This document shows positions 5,966 to 63,793 of a stretch of DNA of 64,000 nt, one piece after another; positions within the stretch are counted from its first letter, which is position 1; each line of letters starts with the position of its first letter. The stretch comes from Flaccisagitta enflata. Taxonomy: Eukaryota. The notes under the pieces are model-generated. The model worked only from the letters and a program-made list of their open reading frames with translations. It did no database searches and was not told the origin of the DNA. The stretch spans positions 30,256,001 to 30,320,000 of the forward strand of contig OZ231126.1 of assembly GCA_965153355.1 (NCBI GenBank), written 5' to 3'. The position numbers and the translations under genes were made by a program.

Positions 5966-7672
5966 TAACAATTTCTCACAGAAATTCCCAAAAGATGGAT
6001 GGGCATCTCCCATTGTGGATGCCATTTTTAGCTGAGTATCCCCTCCCTCTGAGCGGATCCTGCCGTTTTAAAATTTTAGTCCTTTTTGATCGATTCTTGC
6101 AGAAATTTTCTCGATTGGGATAGGCTTTTTCCCCTAGGGGAATGCCCCTTCAAGCTGTAGGCCACCTTTGGATGGCTCCTGCTTCATACTATCATAATCA
6201 TTTCGATTGTTTTTTTCACAGGGAATCTTCGTCGTAATTGACAATATTCCTTTGATGCCCCCCTTCTAAGCAATGTGCCTTTTTTCAGGTGGCATCAGTT
6301 TGCTTCTGTCATAATCATTTTGATTGTTCCTCTCAGGAGATCTTAGAAGTTAATGGATATCGTTCCATTAAGGTTCCCTTAAGAATCTAAGCTTATTCTG
6401 TTTGTCATATTCTTGACCTTGTTCATGACCATTAGTTCATGGACGATCTGTTGTTGAACTACTGTTGTTTCTCATTAGTTGTAACACATTTTCCCCACTG
6501 CCTTACCTCTCTCAGATCCAAGACAGTGGCCTCCCTTTCTTAGCCTCCTCTCTTTTCAGGAGTTGTGTGCAAAAAGTATGGCTTTAACATTCTACTTCCT
6601 TCCCTTACATGTATGTAGAATGTAATGTAAATATTATGGTTAATATTTTTTCCGGCTCTTAGCCCTTTGAGATCATGAGCCTCGAAGGTTGTACTTCTCC
6701 TTTTCTTGGGAAAAGAAAGAGGGGGGGTGTTGGTTTGGGAATCGCTCTCCATCTCTCCCTCCCGCGGGTGACTTTTGCCCTGTCCTTTCATAATAATTTA
6801 GATTATTTCTCAAAGGAGTCTTCGTTGTAAATGGAATTCGCTCCATTTTGACTTGTAAATCGGTCAGACCTGTTCCCTTTGGTCTTTCCTTTGTGTTTTA
6901 TTTTTGCGCCGCCAGATAAATTATGACTATTTCTCAGGTTACCGCCCTGGAAAGACTGCTCATTAGGCGGAGTGGATTGGTCTCATTCCTCCCTCCATCA
7001 TGTTTTTTTCCCTTTTATTCTTTGTAAGAGATACTCTTCAGGTTATCGTATATCTCTCCTTCCCATATGTATAACATATGGGGGGGGGGGGTTTCCCATT
7101 GGATTATTTATTGCCTAAAGCATAATCCTTAGCTCATTTTCCTTTCTCCTCTCTCAGAGATATTGAAAATGTCCACCCTTCATCCTTTTGCCTGTAAGCT
7201 TTTAACAGGTGCTGTTCTTGCGATCATGCCATGCTAGTCTTACGGACGTGTTTCGCGCTTCCTTTCGTTGCGCGGACATTACAGCGCCGCCGGTTTCGAC
7301 ACATCCCATATTGGTTGCGGTCGCATTCGCGCGCAGCGCCTTCATGTAGATATTCTCCATGCTGACTGAGCGTGCGCTCGCTCGTTTTTCCGGCACTATT
7401 GCCGTCAGCTTCGTGGTGATCTTCTCGATGGCATTACAAGCGAGCATTGCATGGATTGGCACGGTTGGCCTGCTCTTTTGTTTTGTCGATTGAGCAATTC
7501 GACTGTGCCAAAGGAGCTACTACCGGATATCGATGTCGATCAATATCCACACATACAATTACTCCGCGACTAAGAAAAACATTTCAGGAAGAAATATTTA
7601 TTCTCAAGACGGTGTGCTCGTGACTTTTTCCATCATTCAGTCAATAAAAGTTTCCATATATCTTTCACTCAG

Positions 7673-9071
7673 TCCCGCGCGATCCCGACTTGCCCTCGGC
7701 GGAAGCGGCCAAGAAGCAGAAGGAAGAGCAACGGAAAATCGACGAAGCGGAAGTCCTCAATGACGAGGAGGCCGAGGAGAAGGAGCAACTCCTCACGCAA
7801 GGATTCACCAACTGGAACAAACGCGACTTCAATCAGTTTATCAAAGCCAACGAAAAATGGGGCAGGGATGATATCGACAACATCTCACAGGTATAACTAG
7901 GTGGAGTAATAGTTCTCTTTAGGCAAACTGAACTATACGAAGACGTTATGGAAGCCCATTTCAGCCTAAGACTAGATTTAAGGCACTGTGTCGCATGCGA
8001 GAAGGTAGCGGACTATGAGTTTGGTCAGTGATGAAAAGAAAACGCCGGACATGGACTACACACCAAAGTCTGACCGACGGAGCAACCATCTGAGAATCCT
8101 GCCTACACCTTTTTGCCTTTCAGGATGTGGAAGGGAAGACGCCGGAAGAAGTGATGGAATACAGTTCGGTGTTTTGGGATCGTTGCAACGAGTTAACAGA
8201 CTACGACAAAATCATGGCTCAAATCGAACGCGGAGAGGCCAAGATTCAACGAAGGATCTCCATTAAGAAAGCCCTCGACGCGAAGATGGCCAGATATCGA
8301 GCCCCCTTCCACCAATTGAGACTACAATACGGCACCAACAAGGGCAAGAACTACACCGAAGAGGAAGACCGGTGAGAGAATTTTACCTTCTTTTACATTG
8401 ATACGATTACAATTAGGCTCCACTACTAGGTGCATGTTAGGTATTGAGCAATGAGGCCGGATACACGGCAATCCAGTCGCGGACGGTTGGGCCGGAGCAG
8501 TAATGCAATTGCAATTCAAAAATGTTATGGAAGGACAGACGGATGGACCAAGGTGTAGAGTTACGTGTCCGCGACTGAAAACATGCCTCATAGTGAAGCT
8601 GCCTAACTGCCAATATAGAGATTGCTGCAAAGTAGTAGGTTGTATGCCTTATAGGCGGGCATGTCCTGTTAGCGGGAGCGCTCTAGCGGTGGTCCACTGA
8701 ATCTAAATTTACTAAATTGATAAAATTTTATATTACGCTTGCACTGACACATGCCGTAGAATGTGTATTTTAGAAGTTGGAAATCTACCACGATAATGTC
8801 CCTAAGAATCTTTGCTTTCGTTTCAGATTTTTGGTATGCATGCTGTGGAAGTTGGGATTTGACAAGGAGAATGTCTATGACGAGCTTCGCACGGCATGCC
8901 GACAGGCGCCACAATTCCGCTTCGATTGGTTCCTCAAGTCAAGAACTGCCCTTGAGCTGCAGGTGAGTCGCGTCGCTGGTTTCTCACTGATTTCGTGTGA
9001 AATCATTCATCATCGCAAATTGTCATCTCTATCAATCGGTTTCTAGCCTACTTCGTTTGATACGCTTACCC

Positions 9072-9169
<98 letters not shown>

Positions 9170-9426
9170 TTAATTCCATCTTTCAGCGTCGTTGCAACAC
9201 TCTGATAACGTTGATCGAGCGTGAAAACGCCGAATTGGAAGAACGAGAGAAATCCTCCAAGAGCAAAGGCGGGAAATCGAAAGGCGGCGCCGGCGCCGCG
9301 GGCGGAGGAGGCGGCGCCAACGCCGGCGGTGGAGCCAAAGGCGGCGGCAAGAGGAAAGCCGAAGCCCCGGCGGAAGCGCCCTCGGGGGCGGCCAAAGGAA
9401 GACCCGGCAAAAAGAAGAAGGCTTAG
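7673..9426 (+). CDS. SMARCA5: ISWI/SNF2H-family chromatin remodeller, 3' exons (HAND-SANT-SLIDE region); 5' exons not seen in window
   Basis: Exons 7673-7890, 8124-8371, 8827-8962, 9187-9426 have GT/AG ends and matching phases. Translation includes [55 protein letters not shown] and [32 protein letters not shown], which are ISWI hallmarks. AATAAA near 9456. Confidence 0.96.
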
Positions 9427-11603
9427 ACTGCGGTCTGCGAATGATCCGGAACTTAAATAAATTGATTTTTCGCGATTCATGGGGCGAGAGCTTCGTCTTC
9501 GAAATCTGTGTAAGATGAAGAAATATTACACCAAGAGAAGATGCTGCCATTACCTGATTTACTGTCCGCATATTGCCCAACCCTCACTCGTATGTCTCTT
9601 ATGTGTCTCTATTTGTATCTTTCTTCATCCAAGACTTTCTCCTCTCAAACGTTGTTCACGCTAATTTTCATCATTTTTGACGACCCTTAAGCTTCACTCA
9701 CTAGATGTTTCGTTAGATCGCTGTTAGTACATCATGTTACCTTAGATATGGTAGGATTAAAAAAAGAAAACCTTGTTTTGACATCTTAGTGAACGTGAAG
9801 CGTTAATTCTGTTTTTCTTGCAGCAAACATGATTTCTTTTGTCGCATTTTACATCGCGTAATCTGTCTTTTAATATTCCTTATACATTTGTAAAATGCAA
9901 CTTGAGTTTTTACGCATTCCAATCTCATATCATTAGTTTTATTTCTCGCCGCAGTTTCCATGTATTACAAAAAGAAAACAAAATCCTTTCTCTGCTTTAT
10001 TCTGTTGAATGCATTGACTTAGTTTGGAAACAATAATTCAAACTGGGAAATTTCCCAGGTCATGCTAGGTTCATGCTAGCGGCGTGGTGTGACTGGTGTC
10101 AGTGCACCAGTGGGTTTGAGAAAGCCGCAGGCCTGCCCAAGATCATTGACCAAGATGTGAAAATGTAATTTTTGCATAAATTGACTGAGCTTGCCAGCAA
10201 GAATGGCAGTGTAGCAGCATGTAATCGAGGTAGCTTATTTGGACCGTCAGATATAAGAGTAAGAAGGAAAACTAATAGGGACTGAATAGAGGATAAAACT
10301 CTCAGGCGGCGATGTTGCCTCGCAGGCGGCGATGTTGCCTCGCAGGCGGCGATATTGCCTTTGTAGGTAATCGATTATCATTACCAATAGAATATATTTG
10401 CATCGTCACTCCATAGTGTACTCCCTCGCCGTCTGCTTTATCCGGTACCCACTACATTTTCCAGGGTGTCTAAAAACGCTGAAATTAATTTTCAACCCAT
10501 AGTTGTGTTTTTCCTTTCCAAAAATGCTTTCAAAAGAGCCATTGCGCGACTTTCAAATTAATCGGGAATCATCGTTAGGGTGACTTATAAGTTTCCATAG
10601 AAATGTATGACCGACAAAATTTGTATTATGGAGATATTGACTGTAATGATAATCAAATGCAAACTATAACCTCACCCAAACGGTGGTTCCTGATCGATAT
10701 GAAAGTCGCGCAATGGCTGATTAGAAAGCATTTTTAGTCGCGTGCACGTGACTGTACACCCCGCTTTGTCCGTCCGTCCATCCGTTGGTCTGTTTGTCCA
10801 TCACACTTTTACTTTTTTTATCAATTTTATTTCTTTGAGTCATTTAAAGTCATTTAAGAGTATACTGAGTCATTTTAACTTGTTTTGAATCAATCTGTAA
10901 GTCTCGCACGCGACTTATAGGTGTTAGCCTTGTTGCAAAGGAAAAATACTTATGCGAGGTGATGTTCAATTTTGGCTTTTTTGGGCAACCTGGCAAACTT
11001 AGTATCCACTAGCGCAATTCTTTCTATGGAATGAAACAAAAGCGCAAGGGCGTGGATCAAGCTTGTTGCATGTTTGGTCTATATGAGTCATTCATTACAA
11101 GATCTCTAATAGGGGCAGTATCAATCCTTTTCCTCCGTAATTGTTCGAAACCCTCCTCGCGTATGATCTGATAGATACGAGACGCATCAATAACTTCATG
11201 TACATATATCTCTAGTACATATATCTCTAGTGGAGGTTCTCCACTTATGAAATAGCAAGTCACTAATCGGGGAAAAAGTCACACTTGATTATAGATTATA
11301 GATTGAATAACAAGAACAAACAAGCAGTCAACCAGACAGATTATAGATTATAGATTGAATAACAAGAACAAACAAGCAGTCAACCAGACAGCATAAGATG
11401 CTCTCACAAAAAACCTACATTGAAAAAAAGAAATTACCATTTACGACTTTTTTTTTTTCAGTCGGCGATCAGTCGCCTTTATCGGTAATGTAAGCCTCCA
11501 AATTAAACATAGACACCGAAATTTTATGGTCATTTTTGGCTGATACGCGTCACGTCAAGGAATAGGACAGACAATATTAGAATTTTTTCGCGCAACTGAC
11601 TCG

Positions 11604-12437
11604 ATGGCTTCCAATCAAAGTGCCTCTTCCCTCCCAACTACCTCGTCGGCTCATTTAACGACTCGGGATCAGATCCTCGTTACAATTTTAGCCGGAGTGC
11701 ACGATCCCTTAAGCCCATTGTCAACGCTTCGTGGTATTCCGCATTTGGTGAAACTCATTTACCAGTTGGCCACCAACGAAATCTGGTGGAAGAAGTGCAT
11801 TCGGTTTCCAGATGAGGAGACAGATCGACGAGTGTTGCAACTGAAGCAAGGCAAATCGTGGATCTTCGATCACAAGCGACCAATTGAAAAGAAATGCAAC
11901 GACAATGACAAATTCCTGTTTTTCACCGAACTTGACGCGAGAAGCGTCGACGAACAGTGGGATCTTTTTTGGCCGCATTATGAAGACGCAGACGGCTCAG
12001 ATGAAGATGATGCGAATGAAAAAGATCCTGAAAAGGAAAGATTCAGGTAACAAGCGACACGAGGTCATAATATCGTTTCGGGCGGGTGGGCATTAGAGCC
12101 TTGCGACGGAGTATTTCCGCCACGATTTCGACGCGATTTCGACGCGCCTCCTAATCGCCACCCGACTTCCGTTTCTTGTTGGCGCTGAAACCGCGGTTTT
12201 CCGGTTACCTTTTCCGATTTTTCCAATTTTTACTCAAACCAATGCCATTTCCAAACGAAAAAAGATAGAGATACCAGATTGGCGCCAAATGAAAGAGTTT
12301 TTCAAGGGCTTGAAAATGGCCTAAGATTTCAATTAGTTTTTTTTATTTTCAATGGCGCAATCAACCATTCAAAAGTGCGTCTTTTTTTTTTGGTTGGCAC
12401 TATCACATGCCAGCGTTTCTTTTGAGCAAAATCAACA

Positions 12438-12487
<50 letters not shown>

Positions 12488-15400
12488 ACACACACACAAA
12501 CAAAGACTGAATGGTAGATTGGCAAGTGGGTTGGTAGAGGCAAGCAGATAACCGATTGATGGCGGTTTCTAAGATGCAAAATCGTCTATCGATTAGTAAG
12601 ACAAAATTGTCATCCGATTGTATTTTTCGATTAACTCGCGAGGCTCTAGTGGGCATGCTATCTCCATCTATATTCTCCCATACCCATGCTTATTCACACA
12701 CACACAGATAATCATAACTGCAGGATCAGAAATGCGCGTTTCCCCACTTATCGACTTGATTATCACGGACGGACGAACAGACAAAGTCTCTTATCCGTTC
12801 AAACTACCGCCAGGTGGTTTTCAGTATTACTCTGGATTTTCCGCTTGTTTACACTCAATATGGACCTCCTGAACAAGAATCCAGCTTCAAAAAAATCGTT
12901 CTTGTGGCGCCCTTTGAAAAAAATCCAAAATTGATTATTTTTTCTCTTATTTTAAAGTCAGAATTTTTAAGGCTGATGGAAGATCTTTTTAGCTAGCGTA
13001 TCTGAATTCCTGATAAAATTTCCTTTCATTTGATAGGTCGCACTATATATTTTTGAAAAGAAATAAAATTTTTAATTTCTAAGCCACCGTTACAAAAAGT
13101 AACGGTGGCTAAAAAATCGAAAATTTGATCTCTTTTGAAAATTAAAAAGTGCGACCTATCAAACGAATGGAAATTTCATCAGGAATTCAAATATGCTATT
13201 TAAAAAGGTTTTCTAACAACCCTCTAAAATCTGGGTGCATTAGAGGATGAAAAATTATCAATTTTGGATTTTTTTCAAAAAGCGCCACAAGAAAGATTTC
13301 TTTGAAGCTTGATCCTAGTTCAGGAAGTCCATCCTGAGTAAATACAAGCGGAAAATTCAGAGTAATACTAAAAACCACCTGGCGGTAGTTTGGACGGATG
13401 GTGTATAGATGTGTGTCCGCAACTAAATTTGAAATTCAAGATTGGCATAATTTTCTTTTTCTCTTGGCATAATTTTCTTTTTCTCTTGGCTTCTGCATTC
13501 CTTGTTCGCATGCTCAGTTGTTATGTTACAGTACACGCACTTGACCGAGTAACAACCTTCTTTATAACAACGTTGAGGCTCAAAATGTCAAAAAAATAAG
13601 AACATTTGTAGCAACATCGTCAGCCTCAGAAAATAAAAAATGTAACAACATTTCAGCCTTATGTCCAACCAATAATAACTTTTCTCTTAGATTCGCTATA
13701 ATTTCTGTTGCATTCAATTGTAACATGCGGCGGTTATTAAGATGGGGTGGCTTTTTCTTTTGTATTTTAGTTATAACAACACTTTGTTCCTTATTTTGAA
13801 TGGTTGTTCTCCTTTATTTCATTCCTACCCTAGATCCCTTTCATTCCAGAGAAAGCAGCGAAAGGAATGGAAGTACAGACATTCTAATCAATCGTTACAT
13901 TAGAAGATTGATGAGGAAAAAATAACAACAGTTTAGCGACGGTTTGAGCCTCATATCGTCATTCAAATAACAACATTGAGCCTCAGAAAAAAATAACCCG
14001 TTGTTACTCAGTCAAGTGCGTGTACACTCCGAACAAACCCGACTAAAACTGGAGGATACATTTTTAGATGCGTCCGTCAGGAACGCATCTCTATAAGAGG
14101 GTCTGTCCGTCCGTCCGTCGGTCCGTCCGTCCGTATGTCCGTCGGTCCGTCCGTCCGTATGTCCGTTCCGTTGCAAAAACCGCGTTTCTCGGCTGTTTTT
14201 GGCCACTGTGAGATCCTATAGGCTATACTGAAACAAATGATCAACCAACATGTTTTGAGAGCCTTCTTTACCACTTAGTCGTTTCACCCGTCTGTTCGTC
14301 CATATGTCTCCATATATGTCAAACGATCAATACACGCAGAGACACACGGCCCGGACGCATCGTTGCCCGGTCGGGCTTGTTATTACCTTAATTTTATTTC
14401 CCAAGCTTCATTTTTGGTGTCTTGGCTAATTAAAGGACGATTAATTTCTTGAACATATTTGGCGGTTAAAAGACCTAACTCATCACACCAATAATTTATA
14501 AAAGCGGCTGATCGCCGGTCGGCGTAGGAAAAAAAGAAAGAAAGACAGAAAGAAAGACAGAAAGAAAGACAGAAAGAAAGACAGAAAGAAAGACAGAAAG
14601 AAAGACAGAAAGAAAGACAGAAAGAAAGAAAGAAAGAAAGACAGAAAGAAAGACAGAAAGAAAGACAGAAAGAAAGACAGAAAGAAAGACAGAAAGAAAG
14701 AAAGAAAGAAAGACAGAAAGAAAGACAGAAAGAAAGACAGAAAGAAAGACAGAAAGAAAGACAGAAAGAAAGACAGAAAGAAAGACAGAAAGAAAGACAG
14801 AAAGAAAGACATGAGCAAGCAGGATAAAAGGTACTGTTTTCGAAGTCGGTGATGTCTTTTGTTTTACTGACTTTCTAAGCGGTTTTTTTAGATGCGTCCG
14901 TCAGGAACGCATCTCTATAAGAGGGTATGTCCGTCCGTCGGTCGGTCCGTCGGTCGGTCGGTCGGTCCGTCACGCCTGTGCTAAAACCGCGTTTCTCGGC
15001 TGTTTTTGGCCACAGTGATATTGTACACTGAAACAAATGTTTAACCAACATGTTTTGAGAGTCTTTTCACCCGTCTGTTTGTCCATCTGTCTCTCCATAC
15101 ATATGTCACATGATCAATATACGCTGAAACACAGCCCGGACGCATCGTTGCCCGGTCGGGCTTGTTATTTAGGGTTTGGGATAGGGTTAAGGTTGGTGTT
15201 GGGGGTGGTTTTAGGGTTAGGGTTAGGGCTAGCATTAGGGCTAGGTGAGGGCTGGGTTTTATACATTCCAACCCGAATCTACTCGAATTAAAGCTTCGCC
15301 CAAGCGGGAAAACCCGAACGAAACAAAAGATCTGTACCGTCTTGGAAATCTTTTCCGGATAATAAGCTAGCGTCATAAAAGTCAGTCAATATGCGTAACA

Positions 15401-18400
15401 TGTTGACTTTACTTTTGTGTGACAGGGCCCGAAATTATGATCAATATAAAATATTATTCTTCAGCAAGAATACGGAAAAATAAAAAAAAATTTAAAATAT
15501 CATAACGCGAAAACTATTGATCACACAATATTCTGCTTGGCGCCATCTGAAAGAGTAAAATCAGCTCTTTTTTAGCTATCAATTTCATGCGTAGTACCAT
15601 TTAGCCCCAAAAGCTTACCAACTTTCCCAAACACTTCATGGGAAAAAGGGAAATCTTAAAAAACTCTGCAGGACTCAAAAAGACCGAAGGGACTTCGTCT
15701 CTTCAACTTTTTTCCAAATCAATTCCATAAAGACTTCATTTTAGAGTGTTTTAATCTATCCCATTAGATTCAACAGAAAATTTTACCTAATTTTGAGAAA
15801 AAAAATCAATTCAATCGGACAATTCTCACAGGTTTTGCGGCCATTTTATATTTATTAGGACAATTTTCCAATGTTTTTTTAGGACATTTATCCTAAAAAA
15901 CTTAAAACGCATAAAAATTGTCCAATTGAGCTGTTTTTTTTCTTCAAAATTAAGTAAAATTTTCTGCTGAATCTAATGGTCTAGGTTAATACACTCTAAA
16001 TTGAAGTCTTCATGAGTTACGTTTTTTATTGCCAAATATTTGGACCCCGTTATTCAATGATTGAACATTGAACATTGTTCAAGGCATTAAGCCGGGCATT
16101 AAGCCTCCTTTAATTAGCCGGGCATTAAGCCTCCTTTAATAGCCCAGATACAAAAAATGAAGCTAGGGAAATGAAACTAAAGTATTAGAGATTTATCCTC
16201 CAATTTTAGTCGGGTTTCCTCGGAATATCGTCATTTCTCAAGGAAAACGTGCTGATGGACTTACATTATCAGGCAATACTTATCCCTTGTTCCAGGCACC
16301 CATCGAAGAGCGTGACATTCCCACCGCCAACCGACATCAACATCAACATGATGCCGTTTGTGATGGCAGACTCGTTCGAGGAATGCCAACTGCCCGATTA
16401 TTTGGAGCCATATTGGCCATTCATCGAACAATGCAGCAGCCGTGAAGCCGTCAAGGACTATACCATGTTCCACAAGACTTCAGACAAAGGAAAAATATGT
16501 TATCTTACGGTGCAAGAATCGTTTGTTGAGTCGGGTCAATCCCAAAGACGACCCGGGCTTCATGTTGACTGTCCGGGGTACGTCAAAATCAAGAATGAAG
16601 AGGTTTTAAGGACAACTGTTGCGGAGGCGGACAAAACGGAAAGGGAAAAAGCAGAAGGTGCGGAAGATGAAGAAGATGAATCGGAAGGCGAAGATGAAAA
16701 AGATGAATCGGAAGGAGAAGATGAAGAAGATGAATCGGAAGGAGAAGATTCGGACAAAAAGAAGAATGGTGAGTATGGCACCCTTTGGGGTCACGTTAGC
16801 GATGTCAATCCGTGTCTTTTGTTTTAAGTGTTTTTAAGCGGGTAATGTTTTAGGGTTAGGGGTGGGGTAAGGGTTAGGGATGGGGTGGGTTTTAGGGTTA
16901 GGATTAGGAGTAGGGTTAGGGCCAGGTGTGGGTTTGGTTTTATATGTTTTAGCTCGAGTAAGCTTGAATTGAACATTTGTCTTTGCGGGAAAAAACAAGT
17001 GACGGGATTGAATTCCCTAACATTACCCAGTTTGGCACACAGATAGAGCAAATGGAACATGTTTCTTTTATTGGTTGTTTTTTTTTATGTTTTGTTTTTT
17101 GGTGCGTCAGAGCACCTTTAATTGAGGTCTTGTCTGTCGGAGGGTCACAATTGACTGCAATCAACCACCGGCTGTAGTGGCTGCACTTGCTTGGCCTTAT
17201 TGGCCTGGTTTCATTTCCTGCTCTTTGGGACTTGGACTCTCTTAAAAAAATAGATTTTTTCTTTGCAGTTAAGTCTTTCAGATCCTAATTCCATGAAGCC
17301 TAAAAAAAACAGTGAAAACAGAATTACAACTTTACACAGGAAAAAAATTATTTTATTTCAGAAAATGGGATTGAGTTAGGCGGTCCAACGGCGCCAAAAG
17401 AAGGCGACGGCGTTTCCCGACGTTATTTGTCTCATCGATGGGGACTCGGCGGTTGTCAAGTCGTCCCTCAACAATCACATCTCGACAACAACGGCTCGAC
17501 GTTCCACGACCGAAGTTACGTGCTCACAGGTGGCATTTACATGACGTCAAATGTTGACGATTCTTGCAAAGTGTGGAATTGCAAAATCGTCCCAGAAGCG
17601 GAGGATGAGGAGGAAGAAGATGACCGAGGCACTTTCCTCAGAAAATGCTATTCCACTGGTTAGCCTTGATTGTTTGTAGAAGCATGTGTTCTTCTCTTCT
17701 TCATGCAGAGATTTAAGGATGGTATTGGGCGGTCAAAAAATAAAGAGATTTTTCTGATATTTCTGTTATTTGAAAATGAAATAAGATAACCAGAATAAAA
17801 AAAAACCCTCCCTCTGCTCATGCTCCATTTTTCAGTAGGATTTGCTTAAATTACAACAACATTATCCTACCGAAGCTGTAAAACGCCCTGAAACAAGTGA
17901 CGCGGGATCATAACATTGTTGCGGACGGGTGGGCAGGGGTATCCAACCCCTATCTACACGCCATACCCCCCACCTACATCTTAAAAAAGCATCTAAAATA
18001 CTTGTTTTCCCACTTTTTGTTATGGACCAAAGGATGGACAGAGCCTTTAGTTGTGTGTACGCCTTTAAAAAGACTCCTTCTCATTTTCTAGGAACTGACG
18101 AATTCTGCAAGTCAGACCGAAGAGAAGCCATTGGACAACTGGGAAACATCGAACATTTGCGGAAATTACTTCCGGATGAATTGGCACAAACGACAAAAGC
18201 CAATCAAATGTATTGGCTCACCGATCGGACGCCTCACGAATCACTTCCGCTGAAGGAAGGCACCTATCGACAGTTCTTCCGCTTAGTAATGAGTCAAGTC
18301 AGTCTGTGGTACAAAGATCATTCTACCCCGAATCCTAAAGGAGTCTTGCCAGACCCCAAGATAACCAAAATTGTCAAAGGCAATAAATTTGATTCAGAGG

Positions 18401-18423
18401 GAGTTGAAATAGTCGATATTTAA
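11604..18423 (+). CDS. Uncharacterised protein with 2OG-Fe(II) dioxygenase-like motifs
   Basis: Exons 11604-12046, about 16210-16768, 17362-17658 and 18092-18423. The last three join in phase 1 with GT/AG. Exon 1 ends in phase 2 while the visible exon 2 acceptors are phase 0, so a small exon may be missing or exon 1 may be separate. Motifs QRRPGLHVD, GGIYMTSNV, YWLTDRTPHESLP, RQFFRLV. Confidence 0.75.
12793..13403. mobile_element. Foldback MITE with long inverted arms
   Basis: AAACTACCGCCAGGTGGTTTT... mirrored by ...AAAACCACCTGGCGGTAGTTT. This explains the look-alike ORFs 12814-12996(+) and 13196-13378(-). Confidence 0.8.
14060..14381 (+). mobile_element. Helentron/DINE-like short element (family A); further copies about 14885-15165 and 62689-62807
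   Basis: Starts in a T run, subterminal inverted repeat GATGCGTCCG / CGGACGCATC, (GTCC/GTCG)n tract, 3' hairpin GCCCG-GT-CGGGC followed by TTGTT, no target duplication. Confidence 0.7.
14531..14810. repeat. (AGAAAGAAAGAC)n microsatellite; representative of many (AG)n, (AC)n, (AAAG)n and (TTG)n tracts in the window
   Basis: Direct reading. Others include 9074-9165, 20405-20597, 21070-21145, 23947-24040, 40018-40110, 45660-45791 and 50149-50350. Confidence 0.97.
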
Positions 18424-20157
18424 TATATTTGATCTTCTACAAGAAAGAATGAATGTTATTGTACAGATTTAGCTCAACTTTGATTATGTATCTAATGATA
18501 TCGGGCGCTGAAGATTACTCGGTACTGACGGCTAAAACGCTAGCAGGACTTTTCTTTGGGCCAGAGTCCTAGATTTTCCTGTTGCCTTAATTTGATCTTG
18601 GTGTCACTTGAATTTCGCAATATTTGCTAAAATGTCATGGTGGAAGAATGTTGGACTTACTGACTGGATTATAAAAGTCTAATTATCTCGCCGAATCTCG
18701 CCGATTTCTCTTAATTGAAATGAATAAGAAAGTGAGCATAGATCCAGAAGCAGAATTATGGTTATATTCAGGAATATTCGTTCACTTGCATAAAATTAAA
18801 TCCTAACTATGCAAAAACAGTTTTATTAACGGTTGATGACAATGTACGGTAAAAACCTCAACTCATGACAAAACAAACTCAACGCTACATGTACGATTAC
18901 TTTTCTTCAGTCTGTCGTCCATGATTCACATACATTACACGATTGATATGTAGATAGATACACTAGTTTAGTCACGTTAAGTCACACCTAACTTTGAATA
19001 TCCTATCAAAATGGTAGCATCTCATAGATTTTGTGGAAATTCTACATGATGGTTGTTATTCGATTGACTAAAAATGGTTTTGATTTGAAATAAGTTGTCT
19101 GAAACAAATTCATTTGTTTTTTTAAGGTTAGTCGCTTTTTGGAGAATCATGGACGAAGAAGTCGTCATAAGTTCAAATCAGAAAACTGGGAAAGGTTGTT
19201 TTTTTTTTAAAATCATTCCATTTAAATGTGTTAATATTAATTACCATAACTCTAGACATGACAAAACAAAATATTCAGCGGTATGCAGAAAATTAGATGA
19301 CTTTGATTAAGATGATGTAAACGACGAAATGAAAGCGGAACAGGTTAAACTTTTTATAGCACAGAAATCCAAATGGTTCTCATGAAAAAAAGAACGAAAC
19401 ACATAACACAAAGCAGCCTGGAAGCATGTGAAAAAAGAAAAAAATGAAGGGTGAGATCAAACGATCTCACTCATCTAATACGATTGAATCAGACAACGTT
19501 TATACGCGCGCGAGAGAGAGAGAGAAAAACGAATGAAAAGTCTGCATTCCGCAAAGTTTTATGATAATGAATGAGAGAGAAGATGCGATCCCCTATTCCG
19601 GTTTGTGATTAATTTCTCAAGAGAAAGAAAATCGTTTATAAATAATCCAAACTATAGTTTTGACGGCATATCAATGAACAAGAAAAGCGAGTTAGCCGCT
19701 AAAAAAGAACACACAAAAGATTACTAATTCTATACTCAAAAAGTATAATTATTATTTTTTTTTCATTCAAGAGCTACAAAAGGCGTTCACTTTTTCCTTC
19801 GAATTCGTTGCTCTTTTTTGTATCACAGATAGTATAATGACGATGTTGACTTAGGTTGTGCCCATTTTCACCCAAAAGATGGATCTACTGGTCACTTGAC
19901 AAACAAAACGAACAAGCATCGTCGAAGACAAGTCTTTCTTGTTCAGATCAAAGATCGGTCTTAGCAGAATACACAAGTCTCCATCCAAACCTCCTTGTTC
20001 CTTTCGCCTTCTGCTTCTTCTTCACATCCACCTTTTATCTTCTCCTCCACTTCCTTCTCCTTCTCTTTCATCCTACCCCTCTCCCAATAACATCTCATTC
20101 TCCATATGTCTCCTTCTCCCCCTTCTTCCTCCTCCGCCGCCTCCTACATCCTCCGCT

Positions 20158-35341: not shown

Positions 35342-38300
35342 TTGACTTGATAGGCATATCGTCCCCGATGAGGACCTGCCTCACCGATCGGGGCAGGCTT
35401 CGCGTTTGTGGCGTGCTAGGTTCGTACTCGCCATTTCCACGCCGCAAGAGCACACACACCTCTTCCCCTTATACACTCGCGGCCTTCTTTCTGCCGCTTC
35501 TTCTCCCGCCGCAATGGCCCTCATACACTTCTTTCTATGTCTTGCGATGTAAGATTTGGAGAATTCTCTCCCGCACGCGCATACTCTTCTGTCCGTCTGA
35601 CTAGCTGCAGCGCCACCACATATTTTCATGTGGTTGAGTTTGTTTGCCTCTTGTTGGAAGCTCGACCCGCAAGCTTCGCACGCGAAAGTCTTCTTTCTGC
35701 TCGAGACCTCGTGCATCCGTCTTCTATGCACAGTGAGGCCCCCCTTCGACTTACACCGCTTCCCACACACTCCACACACAAATTCCACCATGGTGCCAAC
35801 CCTCACATTTCTTTCCACTTCTTCCCCGTTCCACTGATGTCCTCTGCTTCTTTCCCATTTTTCCAGATGGCTCATTCTTTCTTTGACTAAGCTTTTCCAC
35901 TTCTTCCTATCACTCGTCACTCCCGCCAAATTGGTCCAGTCAATTCCCGCTTCCTTAAGCAACTTCTTCCAATAGCAGACAGTCTTCCTTTTTCTTCCCT
36001 TTGGCTTCTCCCACTTCTCCAGTTCTCCCATCCATCCAAGTATCACTGCTTTCGTCATTCGACTATCCTCCATCCTCATGACGTGGCCAATTCTTTCCAG
36101 GACCCGCTTTTCTATTTTCCATCTCAAAGATCTGACTCCTAACTCCCTCCTTACGTCCTCCATATTTTTGTGCTCCTTCTGCATCTGTATAAGCGGCGGC
36201 CCCGTCTTCCTACTCCATATGTATCTGTAGCAGCGATCCACCATCTTCTGTAATTGCTTTATTTCCTTCACATACCACACCCTGACGGCGCAATCGAAGA
36301 GCAGGCCGCTCTCCACACACGCCTCCACTACCCTCGCCTGCATCTTCTTCTTCATCTTTGATCCCACTAGTCGCGGTCTCACTTTAGCCCAAGCTCCTCT
36401 TGCTCTTTTTAATCTTGCTTTAATGTCCTCTTGCCACCCCATCCAGCAGCCCAACATCCTTATTTCTCCGCTTTCTTCGCTGCCAAATTTCAGTCTTTCT
36501 TCTTTGTCGTCGTTGTTTTTCTCCTCGAATTGGCTCATCACTTTCTTTACTATTTCCACTCCTTCCTCTAATTCTTCTTCATCTCCTACTGCCGTCGTAT
36601 CGTCGGCGAATAGAGAGAGGTCTACCCATACTTCCACTGCTTCTGAGTGCTCCTTTTCCCACAACCTACTTCCTGGCAATGCACTTCCTGGCACCCACTT
36701 CACACAAATTCCTACCTCCTTTCCTTTCTCCTCTGCTGCCATCTTCCGCTCCACCTTCGCCACCCTCATCACTGCTTGATGGAAAATGTTGAAGAGAATA
36801 GGCGACGATGGGCATCCTTCCCTCAATCCTCTTTCTGGCACCCATGGCTCGGAATCTCCCTCCTTTCCTCTGATTGCATACTCCGTCGTTTCATGCAAGT
36901 CCATAATCACCCTCAGAAACACTCCATCTAATCCATAACGCCGCAGCAATCTCCACAACGCCGGTTTGTTCACCCGCGGATACGCTTTACGGAGATCCAA
37001 AAGCCTAGCCGCCGGTTTCAATCCCTCTCCTTCCTCTCCCCTCCTCTTCTCCAAATCCTCCGCATCTTCCTGCAACCTCATCATCACTTGCGTCGCATCC
37101 GCCGTCGCTCTTCCACTCCTAAAACCCGCCTGATTGTCGTCCATCAATCCCATCGCCTCCGCCCACTCCTTCAATCTGCATGCCACAATCCGAGCTACAA
37201 TTCTGCTACCCATAGACAATAGACAGACACCCCTATAGTTATTAGGATCGTCCCTGTCTCCTTTATTTTTGTATAAAGGGACTACTTGACCAGAACGTAG
37301 GCTACTCTCCCACTTCTCCGCTCCATTCTCCCACATGAATTGGACGATTCTCACCACCTCTTGCATCACCGGCTCTCCACCCTTTCTCAAATAACAAAGA
37401 CGGACGCCATCCTCCCCCGGCGCCGCATCCTTCATCTTCCCCATTTCGCGCTCTATCTCTGCTCTATCCGGCGGTCTCCCCAACCGCTCCCTCCACCCCA
37501 CCGTCCTCTCATCCTCCCTCAGATCCACCGCCTTGTCCACCACCCTCTCCAGCTCCTCCGGAACATTCTCGAACCTCTCCTCTGACACTCGCATGAAATG
37601 ACCCCTGAACTCCTCCTTCGTCAGCGTCGTCTCCCCTTTCACCTTCTTGACCCCTCTTCCTCCAAGGGTCCTCAGACTCTTATACATCCCTCCCGTGTCT
37701 CCTCTTTCCGCCGCGTTCTCACATCTATTCAACTCTCCTTCCCACCATTCTTTCTCCCAGTTCGACAGCTCCCTCTTCCACTCCTTTCTTGCTTCTCTCA
37801 GCTCTTCTTTCGCCTCCTCCTCCTCCTCCTCTCCCTCTGCTCCGTTCCTCCTCTCCAAACATTGGCTAATTCTCCCTTTCAGTCTCTGCACTTCCTCTTC
37901 CTTCCCCATCATCCAGGGATTCTCAATCGACTTCTCCTTTTCACCGCACACTTCCTTCGCCGCTTCCAACACCACTTCCTGCAGCTTCATCCATCCCGTC
38001 TCTTCTTGACTCGGCTCTTCCTGCCTCTCCCTCATTTTGCTCTCCACACTCTCCTGATATCTCTTCTCCACTTCCTCGTTCTTTAGCTTCTCCCATTGGA
38101 TCATTGGTTTTCTTTTCCGCTCATACACCCTCCTCCACTTTTTCTTCTTTGCAATATCCAAAACCATTTTCTTCGGCTTATGGTCGCTGATAACATTTTC
38201 ACCCACCGTTTTTACCTTCTTGACGTACTTGTGCCTCTCTTCCGCTCTCATAATGAACCCATCCAACTCATACCATAAACCATTGAAATTTGATCTCCAT

Positions 38301-39375
38301 GTACCTCGCCACCTTTCGCTGAAGAAGCCATTAACCCAACATAAGCCATTTTCTTCACACCACTCCTTTAAAGCCTGACCTTGTGCGTTAGATGATCGCA
38401 GACCGAAACACCCACACACACTACCTCTCTGCTCACCTCCCCCTATATGCGCGTTGAGATCACCGCCGACGACCAACGTTTCTTTCTTCTCTGCCCATCT
38501 CACATGCTCCATCAGCTTCTCCCTTTCACCCTCTATCTCTTCCTCCCTGCCGTGAGTCCACACCGGCATATACGTCGCCACCATCACCCAGTCACCCACT
38601 TTCACCGACACATGTCTCTCATCCCACTTCTTCCTCTGTCCTCCCTCGCACCACCTCTTCAAAGCTTCCCCACGCAGCATCACCCCTGCTTTCTCCGCAT
38701 GCACAACCACCACCAATTTCTCTGCTTGCCCTAACCACACTACTCCTTTCCCGCTTGCCCTCAGCTCACTTAGCAACACAACATCCCATCCACTCTTCTC
38801 CGCGTAGCTAACCACCATCCTCAGCTTCCTCCTCCTCAAACTCTCTACCGACATCCCCTGCACATTCCACGTCGCCACCACCATCTCCTCTTTCGACGTC
38901 ACACCCCTCGCCATCTCCTCCTTTCTCCTCCTCTCTTTTTCTTCCCTCCTCGCGATCCTCCTCTTCTTCCTTCTTTCCCTCCTGCTCTTCCTCCTGACTT
39001 CCGCTCGAGGCCCGGGGTTTGGATGGATGGTTGTTAATGCCATCCTCACCTCGGCTCTTCTTCTTCTCTCTTCATCCACAGCCAGTGGCCAAAACGATGA
39101 TGGAATTGAGTTTGGTTGTCCTGACCACCAGCTGCGACGCGAAGCTGCCCTCCTCGGGCTAAAGCCTACAATTTGTTTTAGGAGGTGAGAAAGACGGCCG
39201 GGCTCTCCCCACTCCGTTGCCCAAAAAACGGACCCCACTTCCATTCTTTCGAACTTTGTTGAATCCTCGTTTCCTGAGCCTCCCGTTCCGCTTTGCCACG
39301 CTTTCCTCCACTTCTGCTTTCGCTTCTGTTTTGGTCCGCGTGCCCACTGGCACCCCAGGAAGGTGTAAGAACGTG

Positions 39376-39405
<30 letters not shown>
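35342..39405 (-). mobile_element. Apparently intact RTE-type non-LTR retrotransposon
   Basis: Single long ORF, short 3' end with (TCAAG)2 tail, 5' (CTGG)n tract, and 27-bp direct repeat GTCATTATCGTCATCTTCCATGTCACC at 35315-35341 and 39406-39432. Confidence 0.93.
35381..39244 (-). CDS. APE endonuclease + reverse transcriptase + C-terminal zinc-finger polyprotein (1287 aa)
   Basis: Endonuclease motifs ATWNVQG, LSELR, GDLNAHIG, SDHKP. RT motifs NYRGVCLLS, QAGFRSGR, DLRKAYPRV, GLREGCPSSPILFNIF, FADDT. C2H2 finger CGVCGKRCKSKGGLTVHRRRMH. No stops. Confidence 0.96.
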   Translation of the reverse strand: MEVGSVFWATEWGEPGRLSHLLKQIVGFSPRRAASRRSWWSGQPNSIPSSFWPLAVDEERRRRAEVRMALTTIHPNPGPRAEVRRKSRRERRKKRRIARREEKERRRKEEMARGVTSKEEMVVATWNVQGMSVESLRRRKLRMVVSYAEKSGWDVVLLSELRASGKGVVWLGQAEKLVVVVHAEKAGVMLRGEALKRWCEGGQRKKWDERHVSVKVGDWVMVATYMPVWTHGREEEIEGEREKLMEHVRWAEKKETLVVGGDLNAHIGGGEQRGSVCGCFGLRSSNAQGQALKEWCEENGLCWVNGFFSERWRGTWRSNFNGLWYELDGFIMRAEERHKYVKKVKTVGENVISDHKPKKMVLDIAKKKKWRRVYERKRKPMIQWEKLKNEEVEKRYQESVESKMRERQEEPSQEETGWMKLQEVVLEAAKEVCGEKEKSIENPWMMGKEEEVQRLKGRISQCLERRNGAEGEEEEEEAKEELREARKEWKRELSNWEKEWWEGELNRCENAAERGDTGGMYKSLRTLGGRGVKKVKGETTLTKEEFRGHFMRVSEERFENVPEELERVVDKAVDLREDERTVGWRERLGRPPDRAEIEREMGKMKDAAPGEDGVRLCYLRKGGEPVMQEVVRIVQFMWENGAEKWESSLRSGQVVPLYKNKGDRDDPNNYRGVCLLSMGSRIVARIVACRLKEWAEAMGLMDDNQAGFRSGRATADATQVMMRLQEDAEDLEKRRGEEGEGLKPAARLLDLRKAYPRVNKPALWRLLRRYGLDGVFLRVIMDLHETTEYAIRGKEGDSEPWVPERGLREGCPSSPILFNIFHQAVMRVAKVERKMAAEEKGKEVGICVKWVPGSALPGSRLWEKEHSEAVEVWVDLSLFADDTTAVGDEEELEEGVEIVKKVMSQFEEKNNDDKEERLKFGSEESGEIRMLGCWMGWQEDIKARLKRARGAWAKVRPRLVGSKMKKKMQARVVEACVESGLLFDCAVRVWYVKEIKQLQKMVDRCYRYIWSRKTGPPLIQMQKEHKNMEDVRRELGVRSLRWKIEKRVLERIGHVMRMEDSRMTKAVILGWMGELEKWEKPKGRKRKTVCYWKKLLKEAGIDWTNLAGVTSDRKKWKSLVKERMSHLEKWERSRGHQWNGEEVERNVRVGTMVEFVCGVCGKRCKSKGGLTVHRRRMHEVSSRKKTFACEACGSSFQQEANKLNHMKICGGAAASQTDRRVCACGREFSKSYIARHRKKCMRAIAAGEEAAERRPRVYKGKRCVCSCGVEMASTNLARHKREACPDR

Positions 39406-39409
<4 letters not shown>

Positions 39410-52512: not shown

Positions 52513-55411
<2,899 letters not shown>

Positions 55412-55494
55412 CTGAATTTTTTATTTCATTTTGTAGGAGGAGGGCAAACATTGATAAGCGATCGGGGGCGGAAAGAGGTGTTGGTATGAGAGAG

Positions 55495-61845: not shown

Positions 61846-63793
61846 TATAGGGCAGAGGGACGGATGGATGAACTGTCGGACGGACGATCAGATGGATGGA
61901 TGGACTGTCGGACAGATGCAAGTAATGCGTCGGATCAAATAACGGGGTACCTAGAGACACGTGAGGGCGACTAGAAATGACACACATATGATTAAATGTT
62001 TCTTCATGAATATGGAAGACAAAATCAAGACGTCAGAAGTAGAAAAAACATCGCCAGCTGCAATCATGAATGAAAATGCTGTTTGAGTCCCAGTACTTTT
62101 TAGTCGCGTGCACGCGACTCTAAACCTTGCCGTGCCGGTTGGCAGGTTGGTAGGTCGGTAGGTCGGTCCATAACATTTTTAAAATTATGACTTTTTAAGG
62201 TTTTTTAAGGTAATTTAAGGTACTATAGGGTATTTCAGGGTACTTTAGGGTACTTCAGGGTACTTTAGGGTACTTAAGTTATTCTAGGTACTTAAACCTA
62301 AAACCTAGGGTATTTTCAGATATTTTTGGGCACTTTTAGGTATTTTTGAGTATTCTTGGATATTTTTTGGTATTTTTAGGTATTTTTTGGGTATGTTTGG
62401 GTATTTTCGGTATTGTATTGTATCGATATATTTTTGATATCGTATCGATATTGTACCGACATTCTATCAATACATATTGCGCGGCCTTGGGGTAGGAACT
62501 CTTTTGTTTGTCATTTCCAGACGCATGCGACTGTTGCCCTCTTGGGCTTGTTTCTGGTGTACTACACTTCCTCAATTATAAGACCTGGGACTTAGAAACC
62601 TTCTTTTTTTCGTTTGTTTGCTGGTTTGTTCATTCGTTAGTTAGTTAGCCTGTTAGTTCATTCGTTTGTTCTTTGGTTCATTCATATATTTTTAGATGCG
62701 TCATCGCATCTCTATGAGAGGTTCTGTCCGTCCGTCCGTCCGTCCGTCCGTTACGCCTCTTCTGATATCACGCAGATGACGCATCGAGTTGCCCGCCTGG
62801 GCTTGTTTTCGTTTATAAATTGTTTGTTCGTTCATTTGTTTATTGATTGTAAGGTCTTTTGCTCGTTTGGTTGTTTATTCCTTAGATCGGTCATCTTTTT
62901 AAAGAGGGAAGCATTCAAAGAAACACGACTGCGTGCATCACGCAATGACGTGAGCGTGGACAGGGGCGCTGAGGTAAAATATATGCAACGGGCTTTCATG
63001 CACAAACTCCCCGTTTTTATACCCCCTTCCCCCTTCCAAAAAAACAAAATCAAAGAGGAAAAATAGCGCTGATGCTGAATGCGGATATCTCAACTTTTTT
63101 ATGCGCGTTCTCCCATATCTATAAGAGGTCATGTCTATCCATTGGTAGGTCGATCGGTCGGTCGGTTGGTCCGTCACGCTTACATTTAAACCGTTCAAAA
63201 CCGCGTCTTTCTTCTACATCTGTGACCTCACTCGCCTTCTTTCTTTCATTTTCATTCAGACATTCTTTCATTCATTCATTGACGTATTCATCAAAAACGT
63301 TCATTCATTCGAAACGTCCATTCACACGTTTAATCAGCGAGGCGCACATATTGGCCCAGTGGCCATAACATGGCCTTGTTTCTCTAGCAAGAAAGAGGAA
63401 TCAATACCCAGAGATAAGAGTCGTCGTCGTAATGAGAGAGTGAATTGAAAATCCACAACTGATGAGTGAATCAAGAGTGATATTGACAGAGATAACACGA
63501 AAATAAGATTGGAAGGGTTGAATGTGCATTGGCAAGTCATTCTGCAGATCAGAGATAGTCTGCCATGAAATCCTTTTTCTGTTTCTTTGATTCCTTCTTT
63601 AGTTCTTTTTTTTTATTATTCTTTGATTATTTTTTTGATTCTGTCTTTGATTCTTCGTTCCTTTTCTTTTCTTTTTTGATATTTGTTTCTGTGATGCTTG
63701 ATTTGAATTTTTTCTTCTGTTTTTACCTCTCGTTGTTTCTTGGTATATTGCTTTCTTTCTTTCTTTTATTCTTTCTTTCTTTCTTTCTGTTTT

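Follow-up and report, generated by a model that had tools for sequence, protein, structure and literature searches.

Which protein is encoded by the putative oxygenase gene in a 64,000-nucleotide window of Flaccisagitta enflata DNA (the whole stretch analysed; assembly GCA_965153355.1, contig OZ231126.1, positions 30,256,001 to 30,320,000), and is it a working gene of its animal host? A sequence-only reading had proposed an intron-containing animal gene for an orphan dioxygenase-like enzyme dependent on 2-oxoglutarate (2OG) and Fe(II), located at 16210..18423 of the window. The analysis reported here makes it likely that the locus is a transcribed gene of a bilaterian host with four coding exons, that its product is a protein of 514 amino acids (aa) in which a short helical region at the N-terminus precedes a catalytic domain of the double-stranded beta-helix type, and that this protein belongs to a large, undescribed family of Fe(II)/2OG oxygenases.

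Structure of the Gene

The three motifs on which the proposal had been based were recovered on the plus strand in the frames that it had named, i.e., RRPGLHVD at 16546-16569, TPHESLP at 18229-18249, and RQFFRL at 18268-18285. In the spliced protein RRPGLHVD comprises residues 232-239 and contains H237 and D239, TPHESLP carries the distal histidine H453, and RQFFRL carries R464. The position of RQFFRL downstream of the histidine was correct, but the arginine follows after 11 residues and not after about 10.

When 12 full-length relatives were compared with the window by tblastn, all 12 matched exons 2, 3, and 4, and seven of them also matched the exon 1 region at 11658-11963. The resulting gene has four coding exons, all on the plus strand, and three introns, all of which have GT..AG ends. 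Joining the exon coordinates yielded a coding sequence of 1545 nt that encodes 514 aa and is open up to a single stop at its end. Coding exon 1 (11604..12046) encodes the N-terminal helical region with LRGIPHLVKLIYQ and was located with the homologues; its ATG at 11604 is the first in-frame ATG past a stop codon at 11541-11543. The donor CAG/GTAACA (12046/12047, phase 2) is in phase with the acceptor ttccag/ (16295/16296), which delimits intron 1 (12047..16295, 4249 nt). Coding exon 2 (16296..16768) contains ININMMPF, YLTVQES, and QRRPGLHVD with the proposed Fe ligands H237 and D239, followed by an acidic repeat. Intron 2 (16769..17361, 593 nt, GTGAGT..TTTCAG) lies between the sites G/GTGAGT (16768/16769) and tttcag/ (17361/17362). 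Coding exon 3 (17362..17658) encodes the core strands RWGLGG, GGIYMTS, and SCKVWNC and a second acidic insert. Intron 3 (17659..18091, 433 nt, GTTAGC..TTCTAG) is bounded by G/GTTAGC (17658/17659) and ttctag/ (18091/18092). Coding exon 4 (18092..18423) encodes GNIEHLR, YWLTDRTPHESLP with H453, YRQFFRL with R464, and DHSTPNP (18316-18336), and ends with the stop codon TAA at 18421-18423. The originally proposed span thus holds exons 2 to 4, but it missed exon 1, and its first part, 16210-16295, is the end of intron 1 that is open by accident, because the acceptor sets the start of exon 2 at 16296. In a search for a second copy of the gene in the window tblastn yielded only chance-level matches at 63473-63571 (E 0.19-0.56).

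Two long acidic inserts distinguish the window protein from compact relatives. The first, which is placed after the HxD loop, consists in part of a 27-nt repeat with 3.2 copies (16663-16749); it coincides with a disordered part of the model of a homologue (P0023, see below). The second straddles the boundary of exons 3 and 4. Both inserts fall in loops that are predicted to be disordered in the homologue model. At the repeat, contigs of DNA as well as RNA have alternative letters and show back-joints and loose ends (16733-16734), which suggests length variants or related copies.

Transcripts of the Gene and Identity of the Host

Sequence runs were searched with a word index, and reads were placed on window positions 14900-18900. 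DNA runs of one organism, the same as the source of the window, held 0.62 and 0.60 of the words, and matches were also found in marine metagenomes and metatranscriptomes from 9 studies. One metatranscriptome contig (X7) skips from 16767 to 17361 (GT..AG ends, cut +1), and one (X7) skips from 17657 to 18091 (GT..AG ends, cut +1, side 255). The one-base ambiguity of both skips agrees with the modelled exon 2/3 and exon 3/4 junctions, so that two of the three introns were confirmed by RNA. A contig of 713 nt (X7 record 13) covers 17361-17657 and 18091-18506, i.e., the whole of exons 3 and 4 and sequence beyond them, while contigs of a second RNA run end at 16768 and 17658 and begin at 18091. An RNA contig starting at 18091 (X9 record 23) reaches 18633, and the 3′ untranslated region (18424..18633) therefore extends at least to this position. 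At the other end, a 971-nt RNA contig matches 16293-16656 and has 607 nt more upstream, which leaves room for exon 1 and a leader of about 165 nt. The environmental transcripts were 95-99% identical to the window gene. About 6% of the polyA RNA run of the source organism itself was sampled, and none of these reads fell on the gene, which does not show that the gene is silent. The evidence for expression therefore consists only of the environmental RNA.

The host was characterized with a neighbouring gene. A Pfam scan of the 98 longer open reading frames of the window located the domains HAND and SLIDE on the plus strand (7648-9043). These exons form the 3′ end of an ISWI/SMARCA5 gene, which ends near 9426 with a Lys/Gly-rich tail, about 2.2 kb upstream of the oxygenase-like gene and on the same strand. 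A search with the ISWI exon at 8124-8372 yielded 1234 matches at E<=1e-10. Among the best 120 of these were a Logan protein with 99% and an NCBI protein with 95% identity, Pinctada imbricata with 93%, Sinanodonta woodiana with 90%, and annelids, arthropods, and vertebrates with 86-90%. Because of this similarity to molluscs and other animals the host was assigned to the Bilateria, and this single exon of 83 aa indicates that it is probably a lophotrochozoan. The proposal of an animal gene was thereby strengthened.

It had to be considered that the locus might not be a working host gene, but foreign DNA that was inserted recently, e.g., from a giant virus, or a contaminant of the assembly. Such an origin would fit with the occurrence of the family in giant viruses (a Catovirus protein with 40% identity and a giant-virus-like contig, see below), with the lack of gene reads in the sampled part of the organism's own RNA run, and with the lack of a named bilaterian relative among the best 120 of 367 database matches. 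However, the gene has three spliceosomal introns, an intact frame, and spliced transcripts that are 95-99% identical to it. Its G+C content of 0.36-0.43 (2-kb bins, 10001-20000) is like that of the rest of the window, a conserved animal gene lies 2.2 kb upstream on the same strand, and the word shares in the DNA runs show the sequence in the same organism. Foreign DNA or contamination is thus very improbable, and the locus is treated as a host gene in the following.

The introns contain several repeats. Intron 1 harbours a 12-nt tandem array with 23 copies at 14535-14811, which is adjoined by another repeat at 14900-15033 with an enormous summed depth in the DNA run. RNA reads of the organism itself covered no other part than this one, which is therefore regarded as a high-copy, transcribed repeat family. 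Degenerate TTAGGG-type (telomere-like) arrays are present at 15169-15253 in intron 1 and at 16850-16942 in intron 2.

Conservation of the Putative Active Site

An alignment of 266 sequences was used to analyze conservation across the family. It comprised 259 database proteins (<=900 aa), five locus proteins, the reference P0023 from the cnidarian Dendronephthya, and the window protein; residues were counted over the sequences that have a residue in the respective column. The position of the first histidine (H237) is occupied by histidine in 256 of 259 sequences, and that of the distal histidine (H453) in 257 of 265. The acidic residue (D239) is glutamate in 168 and aspartate in 86 of 259 sequences, a D/E swap as in known triads. 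The arginine (R464), 11 residues past the distal histidine, is retained in 259 of 264 sequences. The four positions are thus conserved to 97-99%, so that the motifs clearly exceed a chance occurrence, the HxD/E...H metal triad is conserved in sequence across the family, and all four residues are retained in phage, giant-virus-like, and bacterial members. This conservation indicates that the protein is probably catalytically active. Further near-invariant positions are E142, two arginines that precede the first histidine, W253, D256, T258, P259, R275, W284, and the histidine of the DHSTxNP motif, and they probably shape the substrate pocket.

Predicted Fold and Alternative Functions

Two structural models of homologues of the window protein were built with AlphaFold. 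Model 1, of the Dendronephthya protein P0023 with the alignment A1, had a pLDDT of 85.8 and a pTM of 0.83, with low confidence for residues 1-8, 163-171, and 175-187. Model 2, of a 207-aa phage member with the alignment A3, had a pLDDT of 96.4 and a pTM of 0.92. As A3 overlaps A1, the two models are not independent. Both have a double-stranded beta-helix (jelly-roll) core.

Model 1 was compared with the PDB using Foldseek, and no match at E<=1e-3 was obtained; the best rows, starting at 1.2e-3, were BelL, AviO1, KanJ, SptF, FtmOx1, and the ethylene-forming enzyme. An exhaustive structural alignment with 48,161 chains placed EvdO2 first (Z 9.0, 170 aligned residues, 3.7 A), followed by ThoJ (8.7), EctD (8.5), KanJ (8.5), ColD (8.5), and human PhyH (7.9). 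Five chains reached Z>=8, and nearly all of the best 50 rows were Fe/2OG oxygenases or halogenases. Model 2 yielded EvdO2 (Z 9.6), ColD (9.2), ThoJ (8.9), AviO1 (8.7), and PHYHD1 (8.6), with 15 chains at Z>=8, and its Foldseek comparison revealed HygX with E 9.3e-4. According to the aligner's own warning, Z values of 7-8 are a common background, and the fold argument therefore rests on the uniformity of the lists and on the coverage of the whole domain rather than on the scores alone. Secondary structure assignment with DSSP showed that in both models the first histidine occupies a short strand that follows the first long one, a strand begins with the distal histidine, and the arginine is located in the strand after that (269-277 of model 1). 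This order of first histidine, distal histidine, and arginine is the usual one in the superfamily. The assignment as a 2OG/Fe(II)-dioxygenase-like protein is thus supported by the conserved residues and by the fold of homologues, whose structural matches are almost exclusively Fe(II)/2OG oxygenases.

Together with the missing reads in the polyA run, the following points weigh against this assignment. Both models represent homologues, and the closest full-length one is 42% identical overall to the window protein. The Foldseek E-values are weak (at best 1.2e-3 and 9.3e-4), and Z values of 9-9.6 are only slightly above the background of 7-8. A shared metal site is predicted from the strand positions given by DSSP and not from distances between the H/D/H residues. 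An hhalign comparison of 238 family sequences with a profile of 25 PhyH proteins, which had been gathered from Myxococcota genomes, gave an E-value of 0.1, which is not significant, and profile comparisons with single PhyH-like proteins gave 0.24 and 0.46. The only confident stretch put the distal histidine and the arginine of the family on those of PhyH, but the extended alignment did not pair the HxD of the family with that of PhyH, and the greedy and global modes added nothing reliable. A recurring functional gene partner was absent from the viral and bacterial neighbourhoods examined, which gave no substrate clue. The annotated neighbours in Salicola phage SCTP-2 were hypothetical proteins except for a tail sheath protein, those in a Polyangiales metagenome-assembled genome were peptidases and a MOSC protein, and those on two phage contigs were an RNA ligase, a DUF932 protein, and a homing endonuclease. 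Lastly, an arginine at the position of R464 is also present in relatives that do not use 2OG, and ACC oxidase was among the Foldseek rows of model 2.

The last point raises the question whether the protein might belong to the same fold superfamily and bind iron, but not use 2OG, like ACC oxidase and isopenicillin N synthase, or might be a cupin-type isomerase or lyase. The fold matches span the superfamily at similar Z values, rows within 1 Z being tied, the Foldseek rows of model 2 included the cupin-like YjgK besides ACC oxidase (5gja), and no Pfam model of 2OG enzymes matches. On the other hand, the great majority of the structural matches are 2OG-dependent, the arginine 11 residues past the distal histidine is kept in nearly all sequences, and the one hhalign stretch with any confidence (overall E 0.1) places this very pair on the corresponding residues of PhyH. 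A function independent of 2OG is therefore regarded as improbable.

A second question is whether the fold alone has been kept and the protein is a catalytically dead binding module. Activity is predicted from conserved residues, and fold matches include a non-enzymatic PhyH-like subunit of the trypanosome RNA-editing complex (8fnc). In addition, family members are fused to interaction domains; accessory Pfam domains were found in 12 of 26 relatives (E<=0.01), 10 of them above the curated cut-offs, i.e., ankyrin, WWE together with F420_oxidored, DUF4116, villin headpiece (twice), ubiquitin, UQ_con, DEK_C, SH3_3, and Rpb1 domain 7. However, pseudo-enzymes usually lose catalytic-type residues, and the near-invariance of all four residues in phages, giant viruses, protists, and animals indicates purifying selection on an active site. 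A pseudo-enzyme is thus hardly to be expected, and an active Fe(II)/2OG oxygenase remains the preferred interpretation.

Size, Distribution, and Annotation of the Family

Exon 4 alone used as a query retrieved 367 proteins at E<=1e-3 (410 candidates), the best of which was 81% identical. Among the best 120 of these 367 matches, five rows were from EukProt, the NCBI-named rows were three of Dendronephthya gigantea and one each of Hydractinia symbiolongicarpus and Paramuricea clavata, all of them cnidarians (octocorals and a hydrozoan), and one protein had a precomputed Pfam domain, a C-terminal DEK_C. A named bilaterian relative was not found among these 120 matches, in a database in which about one quarter of the proteins are named. 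When 1.84 billion representatives were searched with a profile of 86 members (A1), 1976 clusters, counted at 50% identity, reached E<=1e-3, and the stricter thresholds of E<=1e-10 and E<=1e-30 left 1537 and 842, respectively.

The catalytic region had no Pfam match in the window exons (E<=10) or in 26 relatives (E<=0.01). With these scopes, the models for PhyH (PF05721), TET/JBP, AlkB, JmjC, and prolyl 4-hydroxylase all failed to match. Scans with NCBIfam and PADLOC revealed nothing relevant. Sequence matches to the PDB were discarded as noise, i.e., one at E 1.1 for exon 4 and one at E 0.27 for the 86-sequence profile. The sequence-only reading had not recognised the protein as a member of a standard animal family (TET, AlkB, JmjC, P4H, PhyH), and this was supported, as no Pfam model matches the catalytic region of any member tested; together with the missing named bilaterian among the best 120 of 367 matches, it also argues against a known, broadly conserved animal family. 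A description of the family was not found in the literature covered, which did not include subscription journals; phrog_8970 was named in no paper found, and motif strings matched only unrelated acronyms. In the passages searched, a comparison of jumbo phages names only AlkB-like and cyanophage 2OGFeDO enzymes (PMC7824862).

Relatives in viruses were found by several approaches. A search of PHROGs revealed a single family, PHROG 8970, which has no assigned function. Its hidden Markov model has 205 profile positions, of which 197 were covered in the match to P0023 (E 2e-29), and it also matched window exon 2 with E 2.2e-11 and window exon 4 with E 3.3e-10. The structure search retrieved a Catovirus CTV1 protein (A0A1V0S8Z7; Foldseek E 1.3e-23, 40% identity), as well as relatives from Pseudomonas phage Noxifer, Orpheovirus, and Erwinia and Ralstonia jumbo phages. 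With tblastn, gp479 of Salicola phage SCTP-2 (36% identity, E 3e-24) and three Erwinia jumbo phages (six records) were found. Three IMG/VR contigs carry members, two of which are phage-like and one (L003) giant-virus-like as judged by PolB, GDP-mannose dehydratase, Ulp1, and a G+C content of 24%. A pattern scan of bacterial genomes yielded one relative, in the Polyangiales genome, among 10 pattern matches, which is no measure of bacterial occurrence because the patterns were of the eukaryotic type. In the ESM Atlas the nearest large clusters were in Uroviricota and Actinomycetota. The resemblance to protist, bacterial, and phage proteins, which the sequence-only reading had suggested, was thus confirmed.

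From phages to animals, members share 36-46% identity over a core of about 200 aa. Phage-type members (about 200 aa) lack the N-terminal helical region. In contrast, the member on L003 (5599-6441) aligns from residue 11 of the cnidarian protein, and the N-terminal region is therefore common to eukaryotes and giant viruses.

Phylogeny and Possible Origin

A FastTree phylogeny was calculated for 68 rows, which were hand-picked from the 266 and rooted on phage rows, with local support values only. The window protein grouped with five transcripts (P0007, P0008, P0012, P0004, and P0005; support 90), and this group adjoins one that holds a EukProt sequence. The named cnidarians formed a separate group of 21 rows (support 92), and several long branches were flagged. 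Horizontal transfer into the host, as considered by the sequence-only reading, is a plausible possibility, on which the tree is neutral. It is tempting to speculate further that a family common to jumbo phages, giant viruses, marine protists, cnidarians, and at least one bilaterian acts on a constituent of all cells whose oxidation is useful to viruses, e.g., nucleotides, nucleic-acid bases, or components of the translation machinery, and that patchy transfer from viruses or protists into animals was followed by the gain of introns and of the N-terminal module. As a whole this scenario is unlikely to apply.

Putative Mechanism and Substrate

A chemistry with Fe(II) and 2OG would proceed as follows. 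H237 and D239 (QRRPGLHVD) and H453 (TDRTPHES) would hold Fe(II), while R464 (YRQFFR), on the next strand after the distal histidine, would bind 2OG through its C5 carboxylate. As 2OG is oxidatively decarboxylated, an Fe(IV)-oxo species would arise, which in turn would hydroxylate or otherwise oxidise the substrate. The designation as a hydroxylase or demethylase in the sequence-only reading is tentative. Because PhyH-like enzymes, which act on small molecules, have the closest folds, and because the core is so similar from phages to animals, a small, universally available metabolite is the favoured candidate, with about an even chance by this analogy. A protein side chain is less probable as the substrate, and a nucleic acid is rather unlikely.

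Oxygen sensors, demethylases of chromatin and nucleic acids, and numerous metabolic hydroxylases are found among the Fe/2OG oxygenases, and each new family has tended to uncover a new modification or metabolite. The present family is large, strongly conserved from phages to animals, and without a Pfam, NCBIfam, or discovered literature description. Its compact phage member of about 200 aa, with very high model confidence, is a good target for expression and for substrate discovery. Moreover, the named animal relatives among the best 120 of 367 matches are exclusively cnidarian, yet the gene is present in a bilaterian, and whether this reflects loss or transfer becomes testable with more named genomes.

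Other Features of the Window

On the minus strand, an uninterrupted open reading frame of 1341 aa (35384-39406) encodes a non-LTR retrotransposon protein with the Pfam domain RVT_1. Near its C-terminus weak C2H2 zinc-finger matches below the Pfam cut-offs were observed, and it is situated in a strongly skewed stretch with a higher G+C content (0.49-0.52). A second long open frame on the minus strand (52516-55425, 970 aa) is Pro/Ser-rich, contains a very long poly-Gln run, and had no Pfam match. Long (CT)n, (GA)n, and (AC)n microsatellites are numerous across the window.

Comparison With Known Systems

The best structural matches were provided by the PhyH-like group (EvdO2, AviO1, HygX, ThoJ, EctD, KanJ, SnoK, PhyH, and PHYHD1), with Z values of 7.9-9.6 and 150-186 aligned residues. 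The family shares with this group (PF05721 clan) the order of HxD/E, distal histidine, and arginine. In human PhyH the spacing between histidine and arginine is also 11. Unlike the PhyH-like group, the family has a shorter core (about 200 aa) without a Pfam match and invariant motifs of its own, namely ININMMPF, SQRRPG before the histidine, TDRTPHE, and DHSTxNP, and the N-terminal helical region is specific to its eukaryotic and giant-virus members. With the standard animal 2OG oxygenases the superfamily fold is shared, PHD2, ALKBH3/7, TYW5, and YcfD being found at Z 6-8. In contrast to the PhyH-like group, PHD, AlkB, and JmjC/FIH ranked lower, and TET was absent from the rows listed. The relatives in Catovirus, Noxifer, Orpheovirus, and SCTP-2 are similar in sequence and have no described function, so that no function can be transferred from them. 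To PHROG 8970 the window protein belongs by sequence, and the phage members keep all of the motifs. These phage proteins consist of no more than the core of about 200 aa, to which the N-terminal region and two acidic inserts are added in the window protein, and the gene of the latter contains introns.

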